Positions 7,781-32,536 are shown, counted from the first letter of the stretch. The stretch is 37,742 nucleotides of DNA from Nitrospira sp. (GCA_005239945.1 SBAY01000102.1:1-37742); one strand, 5' to 3'. Notes: a model not told the origin generated them from the letters alone. Numbers and translations are program-made.

Positions 7781-7856
7781 GCCACAAAAACACAAAGGCA
7801 CTAAATTTCACTAAAATTTCCTTTTGTGGAATTTTGTGTTTTGGTGATTTTGTGGC
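7781..7856. repeat. Intergenic hairpin, CACAAAG/CACTAA 8-mer family
   Basis: GCCACAAAAACACAAAGGCACTAAA ... TTTTGTGTTTTGGTGATTTTGTGGC; ends shared with 32393-32512. Confidence 0.85.
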
Positions 7857-7880
7857 ATATTACAATTAATCGAAATTTTC

Positions 7881-7984: not shown

Positions 7985-8518
7985 ATGTTTTGTGATATTT
8001 GTCAAAAAGAAGAGGCAACTATATTTTATAAAGAAATGGTTAATAATAAATATACCGAGATGCATCTCTGTAAAAAATGTGCCGGTGAGCAAGAAGTCAA
8101 AAATTTACAGATTCCACCGGCTATCACTAATCTTCTCTCTGCCCTGGCTGAATTAAGTGCTGAGGCTGTACCTAAGGAAATAGCCGAGGAAAAATGCCCT
8201 GGATGTGGCTTTACCTATTCGGATTTTCGCGAAAGAGGAAAATTGGGCTGTTCTCAATGTTATCAATCCTTTAGTGAGCCATTGTCTAATATCCTCCGCA
8301 AGATTCATGGTAATATCCAGCATAGTGGTAAATCGCCTGCTACCCTTCCTACCCCCGCTACCCCTTCTGCTGTGCCGCCTGTCAGGGAAACAGAACTATC
8401 AAAGGAAATTGTAGCCTTACGCCAGGCATTAGAGGCGGCGGTTAAAAAGGAAGAATATGAGGAGGCGGCTAAATTACGAGACCAAATCAAGGCATTAGAA
8501 AAGGAAATTATGAATTAA
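7985..8518 (+). CDS. mcsA: Protein-arginine kinase activator McsA (UvrB/UvrC motif)
   Basis: Four CxxC motifs, IHG...H.GK.P, C-terminal EEYEEAAKLRDQIK UVR domain; upstream of mcsB; RBS AAGGAGG. Confidence 0.92.
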   Translation: MFCDICQKEEATIFYKEMVNNKYTEMHLCKKCAGEQEVKNLQIPPAITNLLSALAELSAEAVPKEIAEEKCPGCGFTYSDFRERGKLGCSQCYQSFSEPLSNILRKIHGNIQHSGKSPATLPTPATPSAVPPVRETELSKEIVALRQALEAAVKKEEYEEAAKLRDQIKALEKEIMN

Positions 8519-8600
8519 AAATTATGAATTAAAAATTAAAAATTGAGAAGTAAGAATTGTTTTCCTCAATTTTTAATTTTTAATTCATAATTTTTAATTA
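8506..8600. repeat. Intergenic hairpin, AATTAAA/AATTATG 7-mer family, copy 1
   Basis: AATTAAAAATTATGAATTAAAAATTAAAAATTGAG ... CTCAATTTTTAATTTTTAATTCATAATTTTTAATT; provides the mcsA stop codon. Confidence 0.93.
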
Positions 8601-9819: not shown

Positions 9820-12282
9820 ATGTTTGAACGATTTACCGAAAGGGCAAGAAGGGTCTTACAATTAGCCCAGGAAGAGGCAAAACGGTTGGGCCACGACTAC
9901 CTGGGGACAGAACACATTCTTTTGGCATTAGTCAGGGAGGGGGAAGGGGTAGCCGCCGAGGTATTAAATAGTTTAGGTGTCAGCCTGGAGGCTATCCGAA
10001 TAGAAATAGAAAAGCAAGTTCCGCCGGGAGGAAATTTGCTCACTATCGGGGATGTCCCCTTTACCCCTCATTCTAAAAAGGTATTGGAATTAGCTGTCGA
10101 GGAGGCAAAGGCGTTACATCATAATTACATCGGTACCGAGCACCTGTTATTAGGTTTAATTCGGGAAGGAGAAAGTGTAGGGGCAAGGGTATTGACCGCC
10201 TTAGGTACAAATTTAAACCAGGTTAGGGATGGGGTTATCAAACTATTAAGTGGGGCTATACCTTCAGGTGCCGTTGGCGGGGCAACCGCGGGTCAAAAAA
10301 AGACGACTACGCCTGTCCTGGATGCCTTTTCCCGTGATTTAACGGCATTGGCCAGGGATAACAAATTAGACCCGGTGGTTGGTCGCCAGGACGAGATAGA
10401 ACGGGTAATTCAAATATTATCTCGCCGCAAAAAGAATAATCCTGTTTTGATAGGTGACCCGGGTGTAGGTAAAACAGCCATTGTCGAAGGGCTGGCACAA
10501 ATGGTCATCAGCGGAAAAATCCCTGAGGTATTGGCTAATAAACGGGTCTTATGTTTAGACTTAGCCGGTATTGTCGCCGGAACTAAATACCGGGGTGAAT
10601 TCGAAGAGCGTCTCAAGCGAATAATGAACGAAATCAAACAATCACCAGAGGTGATTATATTTATAGATGAGGTGCATACCTTAGTTGGTGCCGGTGGGGC
10701 AGAAGGGGCAATAGATGCCTCGGCTATTTTAAAACCTGCCCTGGCCCGGGGTGAATTACAGTGTATTGGCGCCACAACCCTGGATGAATATCGAAAATAT
10801 ATCGAGCGGGATGCCGCCCTGGAACGCAGATTCCAGACAATTATGGTTGATGAACCCTCAGTCGAGGATACTATCAAGATTTTAAAGGGATTGAGGGATA
10901 AATATGAGGCACATCATCGGGTAAAATATGAGGATACGGCCTTAGAGGCCGCGGCTAAACTCGCCAATCGATACATAGCCGATAGATTCTTGCCGGATAA
11001 AGCCATAGATTTGATGGATGAGGCCGGGGCAAAGGCACGAATCAAGGTGATGACTAAACCACCAGACCTGAAAGGATTAGAAAAGGAATTAGAGCAAATC
11101 ATCAAGGAAAAAAACGCTACTATTGCCGCACAAGAATATGAGAAGGCGGCTGATTTACGCGACAAGGAAAAAGATGTTCGCAAAAGGATAGAAGAAACCA
11201 ATAAGAAATGGGAAAGTGAACATCAGGAAGAAACGATCAATGTTATCAACAAGGAAGATATTGCCGATATTGTCTCCAAATGGACAGGTGTGCCGGTTTT
11301 CAAATTGATCGAAAAGGAATCCGAGAAATTATTACGCATGGAAGAGAATATTCATAAGCGGGTTATTGCCCAGGATGAGGCAATTTCAGCCCTGTCGCGG
11401 GCAATGCGTCGGGCAAGAACCGGGCTTAAAGACCCAAAAAGACCGATGGGTTCATTCATCTTCCTTGGTCCCACCGGTGTAGGCAAAACAGAACTGGCCA
11501 AGGCATTGGCTGAATTCCTGTTCGATGATGAGGAGGCGCTTATTCAGATTGATATGTCGGAGTTTATGGAGAAATTTGCTGTCTCCAGATTAGTTGGTGC
11601 CCCCCCAGGATATGTGGGTTATGAAGAAGGAGGCGAACTAACCGAAAAGGTAAGAAGAAAACCTTATTCAGTTATTCTCTTAGATGAGATTGAGAAGGCT
11701 CACCCTGATGTATTCAATATCCTTTTACAGGTATTCGAAGACGGTCATCTGACGGATAACCTCGGACATACGGTGGATTTCAGAAATACAGTCATAATTA
11801 TGACCTCTAATGTCGGGGCAAAGGATATTTTTGAGGCAAAAGATATAGGCTTCCGCAAGGCTACGGCTGAGAAAACCTATGGCGATATTAAGGATAAGGT
11901 TCTTTCAGAGATGAAGAAGCTGTTTAATCCTGAGTTCTTAAACCGAATCGATGACACCATTGTCTTCCACCCATTAAGTACGGAAGATGTCAAACAGATT
12001 GTCACCTTAATGATTGACAAACTGAATGAGCGATTAGAGGAGCAAAATATAGAGCTGGAATTAAGTGAGGATGGGGTAGCCTTTTTATCGGAAAAAGGCT
12101 ATGACCCGGCCTATGGTGCCAGACCGCTGAGAAGGACTATTCAAAAATATATCGAAGACCCATTAGCAGAAGAACTCCTTAAAGCCAAATTCCCTAACGG
12201 CGGAAAGATATTGGTTAAAAGGGAGGAGGATAAACTAATATTTGAAGAAAAGGGAAGGAAGAAGAAGGCTGAAGGTAAATAA
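9820..12282 (+). CDS. clpC: ATP-dependent Clp protease ATP-binding subunit ClpC
   Basis: MFERFTERA Clp-N repeats, Walker A GDPGVGKT and [11 protein letters not shown] middle domain, IGF loop; RBS GAGGTG favours ATG 9820. Confidence 0.97.
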
Positions 12283-12285
12283 GGT

Positions 12286-12849
12286 ATTTACATCCCCCGT
12301 AATATTGAGAAAACCCTAAAAGGGTTTGTTGAACAATTCCCTGTGGTTATTCTGACTGGCCCCAGACAAGCAGGCAAATCTACATTACTTTCCAATCTCT
12401 TCGGGAATACATATAATGATTAATGTTGAGTTGCTAGGGGCCGGGATGTGCTCCCAATATTGGATACATTATTAATGCTTGAAATACCACAAACTGTGGG
12501 TTTCAGTAACCCGCAGTTAGCTCCAACGACTTGTTATTGCATAAGGTCTCGAGAGTTTTATCATTACTCCCTGCTTTTACCCTATATACTTAATTATGGT
12601 CATGAGATCCAGCTGGGTTAAAGTATCTACCCCATAATGTCTCATTCGGATATTTCTTCGGAATATGTATAATTTTGCTGCCTGTTATTATTTATTTGCG
12701 ATAACATTATCTCCTTCGATGACCCTCTCATCAGTGAAAGGGCTTTATCTGACCCCTATCTTTTCTTAGATACTGCTGGGGATAAGGTGATATTTGATGA
12801 AATCCACTATGTCCCAGAACTTTTACCTTATATAAAAATACTTATTTTT
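12286..12849 (+). pseudogene. AAA_14/DUF4143-type ATPase pseudogene, interrupted and truncated
   Basis: YIPRNIE...VVILTGPRQAGKSTLL (Walker A) up to 12416, resumes at 12705 with IISFDDP...VIFDEIHYVPELL (Walker B); similarity ends at the hairpin at 12846; no canonical start codon. Confidence 0.85.
12417..12704 (-). mobile_element. Gene-less integron-cassette-like insertion (288 bp) with attC-like site at about 12411-12540
   Basis: Minus strand begins G|TTATCGC, contains GCAATAAC-AAGTCGTTGGAGCTAACTGCGGG...GCAACTCAACATTAATC-ATTATAT; removal restores the ATPase frame. Confidence 0.72.
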
Positions 12850-12946
12850 AACCACAAAGTTCACAAAGATAAACAATATAACCCTTTTTCATCTTTTATT
12901 CTTTGTGTAATTTGTGCCTCCTTTTGTGAACTTTGTGGTTAAAATA
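12846..12946. repeat. Intergenic hairpin, CACAAAGTT family
   Basis: TTTTAACCACAAAGTTCACAAA ... TTTGTGAACTTTGTGGTTAAAA perfect outer stem. Confidence 0.9.
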
Positions 12947-12997
12947 GTATCGCACCAAAATTCACGAAACTCCAGATAATACCAATGAGAAAAAATT

Positions 12998-13606
12998 ATG
13001 ACGGGAATTATTTTGGCCGGTGGTAAAGGCAGTCGACTGAAGAATATCAATAAACCCCTTATTAAATTAGGCAGGTTGACTATTATTGAGCAGATTATTG
13101 TTAGGTTAAAAGAATCTTCATGTGAAGAGATTGTCATCTGTAGTGGTCAAAACCCAATCAAGGATACAATCCTTGATGGTCTAACCCAAATTGAGGACAT
13201 CATTCCTCACCAGGGACCATTAGCTGGGCTTTATAGTGGACTTATGGCTTCCAGGAGTTTTTATAATTTTGTTGTTGCCGGTGATATGCCTTTTTTGAGT
13301 ACCAACCTGATTAAGTATATGAAGGATAAAGCAGGTAACGCGGATATTCTCGTCCCTAAAACCCAAAGAGGGATAGAACCCCTTCATGCCATCTATTCTA
13401 AAAATTGTCTGGATGTAATCAAGCAAAAAATATTTAGTGAAAAGGAGAAACTTTCACTTGAATCTATTTTTACTGAGTTAAAGGTAGAATATATCTTAGA
13501 GGATGAGATACGGCAATTTTCCTTACCCGAGATGGTATTTTTTAATATTAATACACCCGAGGATATAAAAGAAGCAAAACGATTAATGAGAAGGTTGGAA
13601 AGGTAA
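12998..13606 (+). CDS. mobA: Molybdenum cofactor guanylyltransferase
   Basis: ILAGGKGSR..NK, GPLAG, DMPF, EPLHAIY, FFNINTPED. Confidence 0.9.
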   Translation: MTGIILAGGKGSRLKNINKPLIKLGRLTIIEQIIVRLKESSCEEIVICSGQNPIKDTILDGLTQIEDIIPHQGPLAGLYSGLMASRSFYNFVVAGDMPFLSTNLIKYMKDKAGNADILVPKTQRGIEPLHAIYSKNCLDVIKQKIFSEKEKLSLESIFTELKVEYILEDEIRQFSLPEMVFFNINTPEDIKEAKRLMRRLER

Positions 13607-13691
13607 TTGGTAATCAGGTAATCGGGTAATTGGTAACAACCAATTGAGACTTTTTCTTTACCGATAACCTGATTACCTGATTACCGGTTAC
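13602..13691. repeat. Intergenic hairpin, GGTAATC(A/G) family
   Basis: GGTAATTGGTAATCAGGTAATCGGGTAATTGGTAA ... TTACCGATAACCTGATTACCTGATTACC; supplies mobA TAA. Confidence 0.9.
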
Positions 13692-14934: not shown

Positions 14935-15589
14935 AAAGAATAGGTCATATAGGACTTATAGGACTTATTCTTTCTCTTCCCTTTCTTCGCGATTGATAAA
15001 GCCTTTCCGTGAATCCACCTTCTTCTAAAAATTGTTTTTCTAATTGCCGCAATAACTGGTCAAGCAAATAATTTGCCTGATGAATCAGGCAGATAAGAAC
15101 ATTTGCAGCTACTTCAAGCGAGCTTTGTTCGATATAGGTCTTATAAGTCTTATATGACCTATTCTTCTCCCATGCAAGATTTCTGATTGCTTGAGCCTGT
15201 GGGTGAGATTTATCCCAGAGTATCAATCCTTGCTGTCGCAGAATGTCTTCGTAATCCGCCAGTAGTTCCTCAAGACTTGCACGAGCCACACCCATCAGTT
15301 TTAGCTCGGTTTTCTTTGATGTACCTGATGCCATGCTGCCTTCAGCAATATTTTGTTTGCCACTACGCGATGCCTGTACCATTTGATCATGAGTGCGAGA
15401 ACGCTTGTCAATAAAACGATTACAGAATACCACCGTAGCATCATAAATAATTTCTGTAGTCTGATAAGATTTCAGGTTGCGGTATCCACCATGTGGGGTA
15501 ATCAAGTTTGGTTTTTCATTCATTGTTTTTTTCCTTTATATGTCCTATGGGTCTTATATGACCTATAGGACATATATGACCTATTCTTT
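14935..15589. mobile_element. Four-helix-bundle gene cassette bounded by 17-bp inverted repeats built from 9-mer TATAGGAC(T/A)/TATAGGTCA units
   Basis: AAAGAATAGGTCATATA (14935-14951) and TATATGACCTATTCTTT (15573-15589) are exact reverse complements; mobility is inferred. Confidence 0.65.
14945..15523 (-). CDS. Four helix bundle protein with suffix domain (23S rRNA IVP-like family)
   Basis: HGGYRNL.SY, RTHDQMVQASRSGKQNIAEGS, ARASLEELL.DYED, C-terminal FLEEGGFTERLY. Confidence 0.88.
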   Translation of the reverse strand: MNEKPNLITPHGGYRNLKSYQTTEIIYDATVVFCNRFIDKRSRTHDQMVQASRSGKQNIAEGSMASGTSKKTELKLMGVARASLEELLADYEDILRQQGLILWDKSHPQAQAIRNLAWEKNRSYKTYKTYIEQSSLEVAANVLICLIHQANYLLDQLLRQLEKQFLEEGGFTERLYQSRRKGRERISPISPI

Positions 15590-16860
15590 TCCCCAAATTC
15601 ATTCTGCATAGTTCATAGTCAATCATAGCCTCAATCTGCATGGTAGAAGAACGAATAAATGTCTCCTCTGCCTCTTTTACCTCTGAGATGGTGGCTAACC
15701 CAAGTTCATATCTTTTCTTTGTTATCCGCAATATCTCATTTCCTAATCCCTTGTTTTTTTCAGAAACCTTTACCCGCTCTTCTGCCTCCCGTAATCCGGC
15801 AATAATCTCCTTTGTCTCCAATATAATTTTATCCTTAAGACTATGGCAATTTTCTTCTGCCGTTTTATAATTCAACTCTGTCTGTTTCACCTTAGATGCT
15901 GTGTAAAAGCCGTTGAAGAATGGAATCTCGATACCTAATCCCTATTCTCCACGACTCTTCCGACACATCATCAAGGCTCTTTTTGAATCCATCCTTATTC
16001 TCACCACTCCAGTTGTAACCTCCAATCAAATTAACCTTTGGAAAGTAATCTGCCCTGATTATCCTAATCTGCAATTCCTTACTCGTTGTCTCTGCCTCCC
16101 TGGCGGCAACCTCTGGATTATTTGTTATTGCCTCGCTGACTATTTTTTCTTCATCCACATCTATCGGCATAAAGGTCGGCTCATCCTTGATAGCTATTTC
16201 CCCCTCTATTTTCAACAGGCTTCCAAGATTATCCCTTGCCACCTTTTCCCGGCAGGATGCCCTGATTAACTCCTCTTTGGCACAAGCCAGATTTACCTCC
16301 TGCTTCATCATCTCTACCTCTGGAATAAAACCCTCTTTGTATTTAGCCAGGGTAATCTCCATAATCGAGTCGGCATACTCTACCCTTTTCTGGCAAGCCT
16401 TTTTTAATTCGATAGCTTTTTTAAGATTCCAGTAAGAGGCTATGATTTTGTAGGTAACCTCATTCTTTACCTGCTCTATTTTCAATAAAGCAATCTTTAT
16501 TTCCTCCCTGGCATACTTAATGGCATTGCTTACCTTCCCACCTGTCCATAGAATCTGATTCAGGGAAAGGGATAGATTATTATGGTATCCTTCAATAGAT
16601 TCAGGCGATTTTATCTCTTCCCAATTATTGTAAGAAGAACTGATATTACCGGTTATCTGCGGATATACCTGAGACAATGTTTCCTTTAAAGATGCCTTTG
16701 TAATCTCAAACTGCAGATTAGCTACCTTCAATTCCCGGCTATTAGCTAACCCTATCCTGATTGCTTCTTGCAGGGTAAGATTATGAACAGACTCAGCATA
16801 AGAGGCTTCATGGATAATAAGGAAAGAGATCAGGCATAAACTTAAAATTTTACTACTCAT
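15516..16860 (-). pseudogene. TolC-family outer-membrane efflux protein split by a +1 frameshift at about 15940-15942
   Basis: Signal peptide, LTLQEAI..L.N, YP.I, L.Q.LW.GG, FPKVNL; removing one G joins WRIG to LGIEIPFFNGFYTASKVKQ and ORF 15516-15890 (RYELGLAT..EV..AE). Confidence 0.85.
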
Positions 16861-18050: not shown

Positions 18051-18089
18051 AAAGAATAAGTCTTATCTGACCTATAAGACCTATTCTTT
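18051..18089. repeat. Empty copy of the 9-mer TATAGGAC hairpin family
   Basis: AAAGAATAAGTCTTAT...ATAAGACCTATTCTTT; near-identical termini to 14935-15589; supplies TAG of the ABC ATPase. Confidence 0.85.
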
Positions 18090-18761
18090 AATAATTCCCC
18101 CATCCTTCATCCTGATAATCCGTTGGGTATAGCCAGCAATATCTGCTTCATAGGTAACCAGAATTATGGTTCTACCCTTCTTGTTCAAACCACGCAATAT
18201 CTCCATTATCTCATGACTTGTCTGGCTGTCAAGGTTTCCTGTGGGCTCATCGGCACAGATAATCTCAGGGTTATTAACTAATGCCCTGGCAATAGCCACC
18301 CTCTGCTGTTCTCCGCCAGACATCTCCGATGGTTTATTCCGTAGTTTAGTGGAAAGACCTACCCTCTCAAGTGCCTCAGTAGTTATTCTCTTCCTGTTTT
18401 TCCTTAAAGTAGTGCAGGAGTATAATAAGGGTAACAGCACATTATCCATGGCACTCTGTCTTCCCAAAAGATTAAATGACTGAAAGATGAAACCAATCCT
18501 TTTATTTCTTATTCTGGTTAACTCTTTATCGCTATTTTTACCTATATCCTCTCCATCCAATAGATAGGTGCCGGATGTAGGACTATCAAGACAGCCGATG
18601 ATATTCATCAAGGTAGATTTTCCACTGCCAGAGGGCCCCATGATGGCTATGAACTCACCCCTATCAATGGATAGAGAGATTCCCTTCAAGGCAGGAAAGC
18701 CTGTCTTGCCCATAGGATAAACCTTTGTTATCTCCGTAAGCTTAATAAAATCAGGATTCAT
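18081..18761 (-). CDS. MacB/LolD-type ABC transporter ATP-binding protein (H-loop His replaced by Tyr)
   Basis: GPSGSGKST, MSGGEQQRVAIARAL, ADEPTGNLD, VTYE; RBS GAGGA favours ATG 18761. Confidence 0.92.
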   Translation of the reverse strand: MNPDFIKLTEITKVYPMGKTGFPALKGISLSIDRGEFIAIMGPSGSGKSTLMNIIGCLDSPTSGTYLLDGEDIGKNSDKELTRIRNKRIGFIFQSFNLLGRQSAMDNVLLPLLYSCTTLRKNRKRITTEALERVGLSTKLRNKPSEMSGGEQQRVAIARALVNNPEIICADEPTGNLDSQTSHEIMEILRGLNKKGRTIILVTYEADIAGYTQRIIRMKDGGIIKE

Positions 18762-18801: not shown

Positions 18802-19095
18802 CTTCAATTCAGACATTAGACAATAGACATCCGATATTAGACTTAAGAGAGAAAAATGTTTGATGTCGTAACCGTTCAGGTTGTTTAGGCTATAGGTTGT
18901 AGACTGTTAGCTGTTGAGTATTGATGACCCAAAATCTTCTCGTTTTCCATGTTTTTGAGTTGCAATCAAAACCGTGGTTATCAAATTCCCTGAGTTTCAT
19001 ATCATCTCACATACCTCCGCCCTACAGCCTAAATGCCTACAGTCTATCTACCTGAACGGTTACCTGATGTCTATGGTCTAATGTCTGAATTGAAG
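18802..19095. repeat. Intergenic hairpin, TAGACAT 7-mer family, interrupted by MITE
   Basis: CTTCAATTCAGACATTAGACAATAGACATC ... GATGTCTATGGTCTAATGTCTGAATTGAAG. Confidence 0.88.
18868..19063. mobile_element. MITE copy 1 (196 bp)
   Basis: TIR GTAACCGTTCAGGT/ACCTGAACGGTTAC; 8-bp flanks TTGATGTC/CTGATGTC; highly similar to 26142-26336. Confidence 0.9.
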
Positions 19096-20428: not shown

Positions 20429-20444
20429 AATCTTACCTCTTATG

Positions 20445-20513
20445 GAATTTTCGATTTTCGATTTTCGATTTTCGATTGAGGATATAAGACCCCTCAATCC
20501 AAAATCCAAAATC
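20445..20513. repeat. Intergenic hairpin, TTTTCGA/AAAATCC 7-mer family
   Basis: (TTTTCGA)x4 TTGAGG...CCTCAATCCAAAATCCAAAATC between mrdA and rodA. Confidence 0.9.
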
Positions 20514-22344: not shown

Positions 22345-22386
22345 TTATAGGACTTATAACTCTTATAGAACATATAAGTCCTATAA
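22345..22386. repeat. Empty 9-mer TATAGGACT hairpin
   Basis: TTATAGGACTTATA ... TATAAGTCCTATAA perfect 14-bp stem between mreD and mrdA. Confidence 0.85.
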
Positions 22387-22391
22387 TTCGC

Positions 22392-22856
22392 TTACCCTGT
22401 TTTTACCTTCCGAATTATAGGAAAGATAAGTATCCCCAGTAAGGTATTATAAAGGGCGATAAAAAGGCATCTATTTATTGTGGAAATTCCTAACATGCTT
22501 ATGGTTGATTGGAATGTAAAGATTAATAGGGATTGAATAAGGGTAAATATAAAAATCGACAGGGATATTGAAATCAAATTTTCTGCATAAACCTTTTTAA
22601 TATTACTGGTTATCAAACCAGTAATTAACTTGGTAAAGGCATTAATTCCAAAATTAATACCTGAAGAACTATCCTGCAAGATTCCCGCAATAAAACCTAT
22701 TAATCCTGATTCGAATGTGGAGTGGTTAAAGGAAAAAATGATGATGATAACCAACAGTAAATCAGGTTTTATTTCATAAATAGTTAAAATATTACCACAA
22801 ACCGTTTGGATGACTAAAGTTAAGATAATTATACCTAACCAAATTATCCAGTACAC
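22392..22856 (-). CDS. mreD: Rod shape-determining protein MreD
   Basis: Hydrophobic, PDLLL and G...GF.AG..QD motifs; operon position. Confidence 0.88.
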   Translation of the reverse strand: MYWIIWLGIIILTLVIQTVCGNILTIYEIKPDLLLVIIIIFSFNHSTFESGLIGFIAGILQDSSSGINFGINAFTKLITGLITSNIKKVYAENLISISLSIFIFTLIQSLLIFTFQSTISMLGISTINRCLFIALYNTLLGILIFPIIRKVKTG

Positions 22857-22912: not shown

Positions 22913-23018
22913 GAATAAAATAGGTTATCACTTATCGGTGATCAGGTTATCGGTAAGGAAAACACAATAATCGGTTGCTTCTAATTACCGATTACTGACT
23001 ACCTGATTACCGACTACC
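22913..23018. repeat. Intergenic hairpin, GGTTATC/GATTACC family
   Basis: GAATAAAATAGGTTATC..ATCGGTAAGGAAAACACAATAATCGGTTG..TTACCGATTAC..; supplies mreC stop; near copy at 26363-26597. Confidence 0.85.
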
Positions 23019-23867
23019 GCTCTCCTGCTCTGAGGCACAAGGGAGTTCTTTGTTTATAACTACGAGGACCTCTTCCAACTTAGAGAATTTAACGAATGGC
23101 AGGATATCCACTTCACGGAATAGCCCGCGGTCTTTTAATCCCACATGCACCACATAGCCAATAAATAATCCCTTTTGAAAAACTTCGCCATCTCCTGAGG
23201 TAACTACAATATCATTTTTAACTACATCTGCATCATAGGGTAGATATTTTAATTTACCGAATCTATAATTATCCCCTTCTATGACACCTTTTTCTTTAGA
23301 GCGTAGGATTTGAGCACCAATCATACTGTTCTGGTCATTAAGAAGTAAAACTGTGGCGGAATGGTTTTCTACTTCGATTACTCTCCCAACCAATCCTTCT
23401 TTTCCATCCTGATAGGTGACCACAGGAGCCAATTTATATATCCCCTCTTTTTTGCCCTTATCGATAATAATTGTATTAGCCCAGTTACTTGGGTCATAGC
23501 TAATAACCCTTGCGGCGATACTCTGATACGGAAGACGGTCTTTATATTCCAATAGTTTTTTAAGCCTTCTGTTTTCACTTATTGCCTCCTGCCATTCTTT
23601 GCGTTCAAGTGAAAATCTTCTTATTTCCTCTTTGAATTTTCGATTTTCAAGCCTGACTGATTGAATTTCATTAATGGCTGAGAAGAAGTCTTTTATCCCG
23701 TATTTTATTTGAAAAACTATGAGTTGAAAGGGAAGTAAGGCATTCATAATTCCCCGTTTTAAATATCCCGTGGACAAAGAGATATGAGTAGTCATCAAAA
23801 GAATAGAAACAGAAAGCAAAATAATCACAATATTAGTTCTGGCATGTCTCCAAAAGAAACTCGTCAT
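23007..23867 (-). CDS. mreC: Rod shape-determining protein MreC
   Basis: TM, coiled coil EN.RLK.LL, IDKG...G, GLVGRV, D.VVTSG....F.KG..IG. Confidence 0.93.
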   Translation of the reverse strand: MTSFFWRHARTNIVIILLSVSILLMTTHISLSTGYLKRGIMNALLPFQLIVFQIKYGIKDFFSAINEIQSVRLENRKFKEEIRRFSLERKEWQEAISENRRLKKLLEYKDRLPYQSIAARVISYDPSNWANTIIIDKGKKEGIYKLAPVVTYQDGKEGLVGRVIEVENHSATVLLLNDQNSMIGAQILRSKEKGVIEGDNYRFGKLKYLPYDADVVKNDIVVTSGDGEVFQKGLFIGYVVHVGLKDRGLFREVDILPFVKFSKLEEVLVVINKELPCASEQESGSR

Positions 23868-25053: not shown

Positions 25054-25146
25054 AAAATTAAAAATTATGAATTAAAAATTAAAAATTGAGGAATTACGAA
25101 TTAAAATTCCTCAATTTTTAATTTTTAATTCATAATTTTTAATTTT
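25054..25146. repeat. Intergenic hairpin, AATTAAA family, copy 2
   Basis: Perfect 42-bp stem with 9-nt loop, in the predicted mreB 5' leader. Confidence 0.95.
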
Positions 25147-26129: not shown

Positions 26130-26141
26130 CTTTACCTCTAC

Positions 26142-26336
26142 GTCACCGTTCAGGTTGTTTAGGCTATAGGCTGTAGACTGTTAGCTATTGAGTATTGTCC
26201 ACCCAAAATCTTCTCGTTTCCCATGTTTTTGAGTCGTAATCAAAACCGTGGTTATCAAATCCCTGAGTTTCATATCATCTCACATACTTCCGCCCTACAG
26301 CCTGAATGCCTACAGTCTATCTACCTGAACGGTTAC
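26142..26336. mobile_element. MITE copy 2 (195 bp)
   Basis: TIR GTCACCGTTCAGGT/ACCTGAACGGTTAC; perfect 8-bp TSD ACCTCTAC (26134-41, 26337-44), which contains the TPR gene RBS. Confidence 0.92.
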
Positions 26337-26374: not shown

Positions 26375-26545
26375 GTAACCGTTCACGCCACCAAGACACT
26401 AAGACACCAAGATTACAGAAATAACTGGGGTCTGCTCGTTTGGTAGTTTGTAAATCATATGCCAGTAGACTACCAGGCAACAGACCACCAGCCTACTAAT
26501 TTATTATTCCTTTGTGTCTTTGTGCCTTAGTGGCTGAACGCTTAC
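26375..26545. mobile_element. MITE, same TIR family but different interior (171 bp)
   Basis: GTAACCGTTCA...TGAACGCTTAC; perfect 8-bp TSD AAAATAGG; interior CACCAAGACACTAAGA / CTTTGTGTCTTTGTGCCTTAGTGGC arms. Confidence 0.9.
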
Positions 26546-26640
26546 AAAATAGGTTCTCGGTAAGGAAAACGCAATAATCGGTTGTTACCGATTACCTTAT
26601 TCCCTCCTCCCTTACTTCTGACAATACCACATAATAACTA

Positions 26641-26729: not shown

Positions 26730-26792
26730 GGTAGGGAAATGGGTTATGGGTAACATACTTACCTGATTACCGATTACCAGTTTCCGATTACC
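26730..26792. repeat. Intergenic hairpin, GGTAATC family (inverted near-copy of 23903-23947)
   Basis: AATGGGTTATGGGTAACATACTTACCTGATTACCGATTACC. Confidence 0.8.
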
Positions 26793-26811: not shown

Positions 26812-26908
26812 TAATTAAAAATTATGAATTAAAAATTAAAAATTGAGGAAAGGGAAAATCATAAGTTCTTTTTCCTTTCCTCAATTTTTAATTCATAATT
26901 TTTAATTA
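26812..26908. repeat. Intergenic hairpin, AATTAAA family, copy 3
   Basis: Same left arm as copies 1 and 2, different loop, followed by TATGAGGAGG RBS. Confidence 0.93.
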
Positions 26909-31120: not shown

Positions 31121-31259
31121 GCCATCAGTTATCAGATTACGATTACAATTTTGGATTTTGGATTTTCGATTTTGGATTAAAGATATTAAGATTCCTCAAT
31201 CCAAAATCGAAAATCCAAAATCCAAAATTTCATTTGGTATTAACTGATAACTAAGGCAT
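31098..31259. repeat. Nested hairpin: outer CAGTTAT family, inner TTTTGGA/AAAATCC family (31148-31229)
   Basis: ATGCCTCAGTTA...TAACTAAGGCAT enclosing four TTTTGGA-type units and four AAAATCC-type units; loop resembles that of 20445-20513. Confidence 0.88.
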
Positions 31260-32392: not shown

Positions 32393-32512
32393 GCCACAAA
32401 AACACAAAGAGAGAGCTTTGAGCCTGGAGCATAGAGCCTGGAGAAAAAAGAATTTCCCTGCTCCGTGCTCTTTGCTCAATGCTAATTCTTTGTGTCTTAG
32501 TGACTTTGTGGC
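32393..32512. repeat. Nested hairpin: outer CACAAAG family, inner GAGCAT/GAGCCT 7-mer family (32414-32483)
   Basis: GCCACAAAAACACAAAGA [TGAGCCTGGAGCATAGAGCCTGGAG...TGCTCCGTGCTCTTTGCTCAATGCT] TCTTTGTGTCTTAGTGACTTTGTGGC. Confidence 0.88.
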
Positions 32513-32536
32513 ATATCTTCCCTTTTTTAACCTTTT

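Follow-up and report, generated by a model that had tools for sequence, protein, structure and literature searches.

What a 288-bp segment with no convincing gene is doing inside an ATPase gene, and by what route it arrived there, is the question raised by positions 12286-12849 of a 37,742-nucleotide stretch of DNA from Nitrospira sp. (GCA_005239945.1, SBAY01000102.1:1-37742). The whole stretch is called the window here. An earlier note, made from the sequence alone, had taken the segment for a gene-less integron-like cassette integrated at a secondary GTT site. In our judgement the chances are about even that the 288 bp are an integron-type cassette, inserted at this site by an integrase. The strongest point in favour is that a match to attC sites, one that would be unremarkable anywhere else, coincides with the insert in place, strand and end. 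The features on which the question turns are the insert, the short repeat at its ends, and the two pieces of ATPase on either side.

12417-12704, minus strand, the 288-bp insert; in a cassette reading the window's minus strand would be the top strand, running from the body to the attC
12413-12416 (left) and 12701-12704 (right), no strand assigned, a 4-nt direct repeat ATAA (TTAT on the minus strand), read from the sequence
12283-12416, plus strand, part 1 of the ATPase relic (AAA_14/DUF4143 family), about codons 3-47, including Walker A
12705-12846, plus strand, part 2 of the ATPase relic, about codons 48-93, including Walker B

The insertion itself is clear. Eight intact homologues of the ATPase (403-413 aa) were fetched, and all eight run gap-free through ...(N/S)IISFDDP... 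across the insertion point; 12417-12704 is therefore a real 288-bp insert. Excising it restores an in-frame ...GNTYN|IISFDDP... between Walker A (GPRQAGKST) and Walker B (VIFDEI), just as the earlier note had claimed, and the intact alleles that the note had named as a check agree with its breakpoint at the protein level. When the eight homologues are compared with 12201-13000 by tblastn, only two significant segments are found, and they meet at Asn47. For example, residues 4-47 of homologue P0001 align at 12286-12417 and residues 47-106 at 12703-12903. A codon for Asn47 stands at both junctions, AAT at 12415-12417 and AAC at 12703-12705.

The ATAA at both ends leaves the junction ambiguous by 4 nt, and this repeat can be either a target duplication or the homology of a crossover. 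The minus-strand sequence is AATG|TTATCGC at the upstream junction and ATCA|TTATATG at the downstream one. The restored target is AATG|TTATATG, a G|TT site, which fits the GWT described as conserved at genome insertion sites by Loot et al. (bioRxiv 10.1101/2022.09.11.507474). All the minus-strand words listed in the earlier note are present, namely the G|TT target, the TTATCGC start, the inverse core GCAATAAC (at 12540-12533) and the distal core. The last does read ATTATAT; the G-to-A change that the note presumed there, or its equivalent on the target side, is still required for a cassette.

The composition of the insert is that of its surroundings (G+C 0.378 versus 0.387 for the window). Six open reading frames (ORFs) of at least 20 aa overlap it, the longest of 57 aa on the plus strand, and none is convincing. 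Neither this longest ORF nor the insert's 63-codon open frame finds a relative in a set of 1.84 billion representative proteins, and its 13 stop-free translated segments match no Pfam family (best E 0.27). The earlier note had seen no evident ORF in the roughly 160 bp before the attC, and the same absence is found here. Non-coding cassettes are common, so the missing ORF is no argument against a cassette; in six Vibrio arrays described by Boucher et al. (2006, PMC1382264) they make up 6-49% of the cassettes. A scan for promoters and terminators is uninformative, with 3 promoter-like sites where 2.7 are expected and 0 terminators. Three parts of the insert can be listed.

12540-12704, minus strand, the 'cassette body' of about 165 nt, which matches no family and has no credible ORF
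12492-12518, plus strand, a hairpin of 11 bp with a 5-nt loop, in the variable centre of the attC-like site
12652-12673, plus strand, a look-alike of the left flank 12395-12417 (ATPase, 23 nt), with 19 of 22 aligned bases and one gap

The hairpin is the sole structure kept in the centroid folds and is fully paired on the plus strand by way of one G.T pair. The look-alike lies on the same strand as the flank that it resembles, 31 nt from the insert's right end. Its score is reached by none of 500 shuffles and by 10 of 5323 natural 30-nt windows, and no model considered here predicts it.

Resemblance to attC sites was measured with covariance models R1, R2 and R3, built from 8, 23 and 31 real attC sites, respectively, in bottom-strand orientation and with the R-box and L-box pairs. 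The real sites come from class 1 integrons in plasmid records. The R1 model recovered attC sites that it had not seen, for example those of arr-2 (26.8 bits) and qnrVC1 (21.3 bits). The window was scanned with all three models with filters off, and each matches the same segment, with a rank and score that rise as the models broaden.

12418-12539, minus strand, the attC-like site (the models are built on the bottom strand; the match is on the window's plus strand)
12411-12417, junction-spanning R'-like box, ATATAAT
12418-12424, inner R'-like box, GATTAAT
12426-12429, spacer of the 5' arm
12430-12437, L' box
12521-12527, L'' box
12528-12531, spacer of the 3' arm
12533-12539, R'' box, GTTATTG, with GTT at 12533-12535
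12418-12539, model R1 (8 sites), 8.2 bits, sixth of 13 matches in the window
12418-12539, model R2 (23 sites), 14.2 bits, first of 7 matches, E 0.32 for the window and 0.0043 for 12300-12800
12418-12539, model R3 (31 sites), 15.1 bits, top match in the window

No other window match exceeds 12.1 bits. Four held-out real attC sites score 24.5 (ereA2), 18.6 (dfrA16), 16.6 (dfrA1) and 14.5 bits (L017:1554-1613) with R3; the last of these is taken as the final cassette's attC because it lies 103 nt from qacEdelta1, as in R100. Among the clear false matches of R3, the highest reach 13.8 bits (inside intI1), 12.8 bits (100 kb of phage T4) and 11.9 bits (the window), and no match of 15.1 bits or more is found elsewhere in about 175 kb (the remainder of the window, three plasmid loci and 100 kb of T4). 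The candidate thus scores in the zone of weak real sites, just over all the noise seen in about 175 kb. One of the control plasmids carries a group II intron reverse transcriptase gene between dfrA14 and an attC-like match (L006:3581-4930 and L006:2985-3071), which is irrelevant to the window.

A hidden Markov model (HMM) of the L''-spacer-R'' arm, using sequence without pairing, also has its best window match here, at 12521-12536 with 7.3 bits. In 20 Mb of Markov sequence modelled on the window it gives 29 matches of at least 7.3 bits, or 7.3e-7 per base and strand, and the chance of such a match anywhere in the insert is about 4e-4. Both the strand of the attC-like match and the end of the insert at which it lies are those demanded by a cassette, and its R' end abuts the junction. 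Purine content of the bottom strand, 0.50 for the candidate and a median of 0.53 for 19 real sites, is uninformative.

The earlier note had also held that failure of the segment to fold as an attC would tell against its reading. As single-stranded DNA, 12405-12545 gives fold z-scores of -0.98 and -0.84 (range -0.7 to -1.1), and the candidate attC gives -1.5, with 15 of 200 shuffles folding as well. Bottom-strand z-scores of 15 real attC sites include -9.13 (dfrA1), -7.5 (blaIMP-4), -2.03 (aadA5), -1.25 (L017:1554-1613) and +0.11 (qnrVC1, a site of 126 nt with G+C 0.43). Since the real sites span +0.11 to -9.13 and overlap the candidate's values, fold energy does not discriminate, and fold stability was dropped as grounds for refuting an attC. 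The methodological lesson is that fold-energy z-scores are invalid as a test of attC membership.

The pairing of the two ends depends on whether the insert is taken as linear or circular. The earlier note had expected the two cores to be nearly complementary in a circular cassette. In linear 12405-12545 the ends are unpaired, with 0.03 and 0.19 expected pairs compared with 5.9 and 6.3 for the aadA1 attC of R100. In a circular reconstruction, 12698-12704 joined to 12417 pairs with R'' at 12533-12540 through 8 pairs that include two G.T, and does so only on the bottom strand, so that R' and R'' close into an R box in the folded bottom strand; about 5.0 end pairs are expected on the plus strand and 0.09 on the minus strand. 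With the junction word fixed and 400 random inserts, 52 of the 400 give any closed candidate and 5 give one as stable. A generic search for closed-end AAC...GTT pairs across 12380-12740 yields 6 candidates per strand, none of them attC-like; this search is weak, as several real attC sites were missed in its controls.

If an integrase placed the insert, the events may be pictured as follows. A non-coding cassette would have gone into an off-target G|TT of the AAA_14-family ATPase, whether this was still a gene or already a remnant. Read on the minus strand, the unit would begin with TTATCGC... at 12704, continue through a body of about 165 nt and end in an attC of about 122-130 nt (12539 to about 12417). 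An integron integrase encoded elsewhere would have acted on the folded bottom strand (the window's plus strand) of the circular cassette. Strand exchange with the target would have taken place between AA and C of ...ACATATAA|C..., leaving TTAT/ATAA at both junctions. The site would by now be degenerate or atypical, with AAT for AAC, two R'-like words 7 nt apart and a stem broken beyond the L box, and it is probably no longer able to excise. The insertion, its junctions and the statistical likeness to attC sites are observed; we infer the integrase step, the circular intermediate, the order of insertion relative to truncation of the ATPase and any later mutation, and the same applies to the 'natural example' of secondary-site insertion, now 'locked in', of which the earlier note spoke.

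A number of observations weigh against this account, and those on geometry are the most serious. The inner R', whose spacing to the L box is canonical, would place the AA|C crossover at 12423|12424, 7 nt inside the insert, while the ATPase homology ends at 12416/12417 and not at that model crossover. In this register the two spacers are 4 and 4 nt; in the register of the junction-spanning R', the spacer of the R'-L' arm is 12 nt, and the usual central spacer given for attC sites is 5-6 nt (Nivina 2016). That no single register combines a crossover at the junction with canonical geometry is the main negative evidence. The R'-like words ATAATG and ATTAATG stand in tandem, and a 7-nt duplication, an ad hoc assumption, would reconcile both readings of R'. 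Conserved triplets are described for attC sites (Nivina 2016), with GTT in R'' and, on the bottom strand, AAC in R'; both R' candidates here have AAT (12415-12417 and 12422-12424), and one substitution would restore AAC. The first nucleotides of the partner sites differ as well, with A|TT in the cassette and G|TT in the target on the top strand, and identity of this nucleotide between partners is reported as the sole requirement (Frumerie 2010). Given AAT for AAC and the first-nucleotide mismatch, one later substitution would be needed. The extrahelical bases described for the L'' arm of attC sites are G16 and T23/24, with a 6-bp stem between them (Nivina 2016). In the candidate, position 16 is a C that is paired in the minimum-energy fold, position 23 is T, and the stem between the two has only 3-4 pairs, with extra bases on the other arm; the real attC sites folded here do show the pattern. 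The pairing partners of the insert's ends are not unusually strong, since 333 of 500 shuffles match or exceed the left 25 nt and 358 of 500 the right 25 nt.

Scores and searches add to these points. The covariance models are small and home-made from proteobacterial mobile integrons, and their E-values are rough. With default filters R1 finds no match in the window, and the R3 match, at E 0.31 for 75 kb, is at noise level for a genome-wide scan; the covariance test proposed by the earlier note for 12405-12545 yields the window's best match with R2 and R3, at a score that would pass unnoticed in a genome. The 5' arm alone gives no HMM match. No integrase or transposase domain is found in the window's 28 large ORFs (37.7 kb), and the window has no second attC-like match and no second copy or donor of the insert (best other match 13 nt). 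The insert matches none of 72,556 plasmids and none of 50,697 phage records. In a scan of contigs from one genome per species, with the insert's 63-aa open frame as proxy, one of 338 pattern matches passed; it lies inside a 1268-aa Granulicella ORF (an outer-membrane protein gene) and is spurious. The cassette reading of the earlier note is partly supported.

Alternatively, orphan DNA may have entered a dying gene by a route other than an integron, its likeness to attC being a chance match in A+T-rich sequence, and to this we assign a probability that is short of even, though substantial. Possible routes are template switching or illegitimate recombination at the ATAA microhomology, or a decayed small mobile element of no family identified here. 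The locus is a junkyard in which an ATPase without its start and three quarters of its length abuts a palindromic repeat, and the genome is rich in small repeats, including a true miniature inverted-repeat transposable element (MITE) with inverted ends and 8-nt duplications. An insert of the genome's own composition, an attC score that is low in absolute terms, and a 5' arm, end pairing, extrahelical bases and crossover position that fail or are ambiguous all suit such an origin, as does the 22-nt look-alike of the left flank within the insert, which is predicted by no integron model. The price of this explanation is that the window's best attC match landed in these 288 bp by accident, with strand and end both as a cassette would have them; the arm HMM alone puts this chance at about 4e-4, and scaling the R3 E-value to both strands of the 288 bp puts it at the order of 1e-3. 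Moreover, the insert has no terminal inverted repeats and no subterminal hairpin pair, and no second copy or donor in the window. If the integron reading is wrong, the locus is a case of ordinary gene decay.

A genuine attC could also lie in the left part of an insert that came from a cassette array as a fragment, joined here through illegitimate recombination and not by integrase. Such a fragment accounts for the 7-nt offset between the model crossover (12423|12424) and the junction (12416|12417) and explains the A/G mismatch in the first nucleotide without a later mutation; it leaves the good pairing of the junction-spanning word with R'' in the circular form, and the target G|TT exactly at the junction, as two coincidences, and we regard it as improbable. 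Known non-integron elements, among them a MITE, a palindrome-associated element of the IS200/IS605 type, a group I or II intron, a structured RNA or a scrambled ATPase paralogue, are largely refuted and very improbable. The 4-nt direct repeat could be a target duplication, and there is one stable hairpin at 12492-12518. A MITE or other derivative of a DDE transposon was rejected on its lack of inverted ends and its single copy in the window, with only the 4-nt repeat present. An IS200/IS605-like element, an intron or other RNA family, a fragment of an ATPase paralogue and a protein-coding remnant were rejected as well. The ends are not inverted repeats, and the whole insert folds no better than shuffles (z = +0.53 and -0.22). 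For introns and other Rfam RNA families there are 0 matches at gathering score in the window, and at E up to 10 the one match inside the insert has E = 5. Comparison by tblastn with the 8 ATPases finds no significant segment inside the insert (nothing better than about E 0.09), and the 13 stop-free segments match no Pfam family.

Should the insert be a cassette placed by an integrase, the type of event is not new, as cassette insertion outside att sites has already been described. Loot et al. (bioRxiv 10.1101/2022.09.11.507474) describe attC x attG events and SALINs, with isolated SALIN cassettes in 2469 of 21,105 complete genomes; off-target insertion has been demonstrated by experiment in E. 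coli, and isolated attC sites have pointed to it in silico. Secondary-site integration is also cited in Cury et al. 2016 (PMC4889954). At best, then, the insert adds no new class of event. Like attG insertions and SALINs, it carries only one attC-like site, has neither an integrase nor a further attC in its vicinity, lies inside a gene, and shows a restored G|TT (GWT) target at the crossover and a short repeat at both junctions. In contrast to them, it has a weak attC of atypical form (AAT in place of AAC, R' words in tandem, the extrahelical pattern missing), and its host is an uncultivated lineage that is not a proteobacterium. The right-hand CRGM motif of the E. coli attG hotspots is absent here, where positions 6-9 are TGTA, and SALINs are defined with a coding sequence, which this insert lacks. 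The non-coding cassettes of chromosomal integron arrays, as Boucher et al. present them, are likewise short attC-bearing units without an ORF; those lie in arrays, many have paralogues, and sister species carry close relatives of them, in contrast to the present insert, which stands alone with no relative found in the collections searched.

The closest likeness among known sites is to the attC sites of the blaIMP/dfrA17 family (127-133 nt; taken from L013:4612-4744, L018:5118-5244 and L009:4882-5014). The candidate has a similar length of 122-130 nt and shares GAGTT..AG.GGC in its 5' arm. Its L''-spacer-R'' arm agrees with the blaIMP-4 and blaIMP-1 attC sites at 16 of 17 bases (GCT.CAACGACTTGTTA), the 3' arm reading GCTCCAACGACTTGTTA where those two sites have GCTGCAACGACTTGTTA. 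The family's sites form one long hairpin (z = -6.1 and -7.5), in contrast to the candidate's centre, which is unrelated and weakly structured (z = -1.5), and the insert as a whole, unlike the blaIMP/dfrA17 cassettes, matches no plasmid record. That a non-coding cassette with an attC of this clinical family was caught in nature by an off-target integrase, in an uncultivated non-proteobacterial lineage, is improbable. If true, it would offer a natural attC x genome event that can be dated and whose empty site can be reconstructed, and a pointer to the environmental pool behind the clinical attC family. The broader integron reading, if true, would provide a natural case, from an uncultivated lineage, of a cassette that inserted into a gene rather than an integron, with an empty site that can be reconstructed from intact homologues and an attC arm near-identical to that of the blaIMP cassette family.

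The gene into which the insert falls is itself a remnant. The window covers housekeeping DNA of an uncultivated bacterium with low G+C (0.39) and carries genes for RNase J, mcsA/mcsB/clpC, a mobA-like protein, macAB-tolC, mreBCD-pbp2-rodA and glycosyltransferases. Between the clpC stop (12280-12282) and the start of the mobA-like gene (12998), no intact gene is encoded. The ATPase relic begins 3 nt past the clpC stop and has no start codon; translation from 12283 gives GIYIPRNIEKTLKGFVEQFPVVILTGPRQAGKSTLLSNLFGNTYN and then a stop, and translation from 12706 gives IISFDDPLISERALSDPYLFLDTAGDKVIFDEIHYVPELLPYIKILI. About 94 of some 405 codons are left, with about 315 codons gone after part 2 and the DUF4143 portion missing. 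The earlier note was right about the insertion and its coordinates; the ATPase gene that it named as host needs correcting to a stump. The locus is best explained as a decaying remnant without present function between clpC and the mobA-like gene.

The family of the relic is clear. Its first flank matches positions 2-26 of the Pfam AAA_14 profile (PF13173) with E 6.8e-6, and its second flank positions 35-84 with E 1.7e-4. Searches for longer relatives yielded 41 proteins from 63 candidates for piece 1 and 8 from 17 for piece 2, and both lists are headed by the same 403-413-aa proteins with AAA_14 and DUF4143 domains (PF13173 and PF13635). P0001 is 91% identical to piece 1 and 96% identical to piece 2, and one close homologue carries the label Candidatus Desantisbacteria; a full-text literature search found no paper joining Desantisbacteria with an integron. 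The adjacent MobA-like protein (12998-13606) has no relative above 74% identity. The relic is thus 91-96% identical to intact proteins on other contigs while MobA reaches at most 74%, which suggests, from sequence identity, that AAA_14/DUF4143 genes have recently been duplicated or transferred in this lineage.

Homology to the ATPase stops at about 12846, where the homologues read YIKILIDKD and the window YIKILIFNH. A palindrome begins exactly at this point and belongs to a repeat family of TTTGTG words that recurs in the window.

12846-12944, no strand assigned, palindromic element of 99 bp, with 22-nt perfect arms at 12846-12867 and 12923-12944

Long A+T-rich palindromes made up of short tandem words also occupy many other intergenic gaps of the window. 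The words fall into at least five families, each recurring at 2-5 places, and the palindrome arms are up to 42 nt long and 100% complementary. Such palindromes may be terminators, or else small mobile repeats of one palindromic family. Their sites are as follows.

8513-8599, 25054-25146 and 26812-26908, palindromes
14936-14986, 15133-15171, 15537-15593, 18051-18094 and 22346-22393, palindromes
20442-20487 and 31147-31233, palindromes
13603-13691, 22937-23025, 26551-26596 and 26744-26785, palindromes
7833-7860, 12846-12945 (the 3' break of the ATPase relic), 26511-26538 and 32489-32516, palindromes

The MITE-like repeat of the window is about 197 bp long, with two copies (18867-19063 and 26141-26336) that are about 94% identical. 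Its ends are terminal inverted repeats of 14 nt (GTAACCGTTCAGGT), and direct repeats of 8 nt flank it. Copy A (18867-19063) lies within a palindrome with 35-nt arms at 18802-18836 and 19061-19095. Like this 197-bp element, the insert in the ATPase relic is a small non-coding insertion with a short flanking direct repeat; unlike it, the insert is single and has no inverted ends, where the MITE has 14-nt inverted ends, 8-nt duplications and two copies.

At 14945-15523, 15516-15890 and 15892-16860 (all on the minus strand), an ORF of the 23S_rRNA_IVP family (four-helix bundle) is found between macA-like and TolC/OEP genes. It is bracketed by repeats of the TATAGGACT type, and the TolC/OEP gene is split into two ORFs. 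This ORF may be another small insertion, in this case in an operon.

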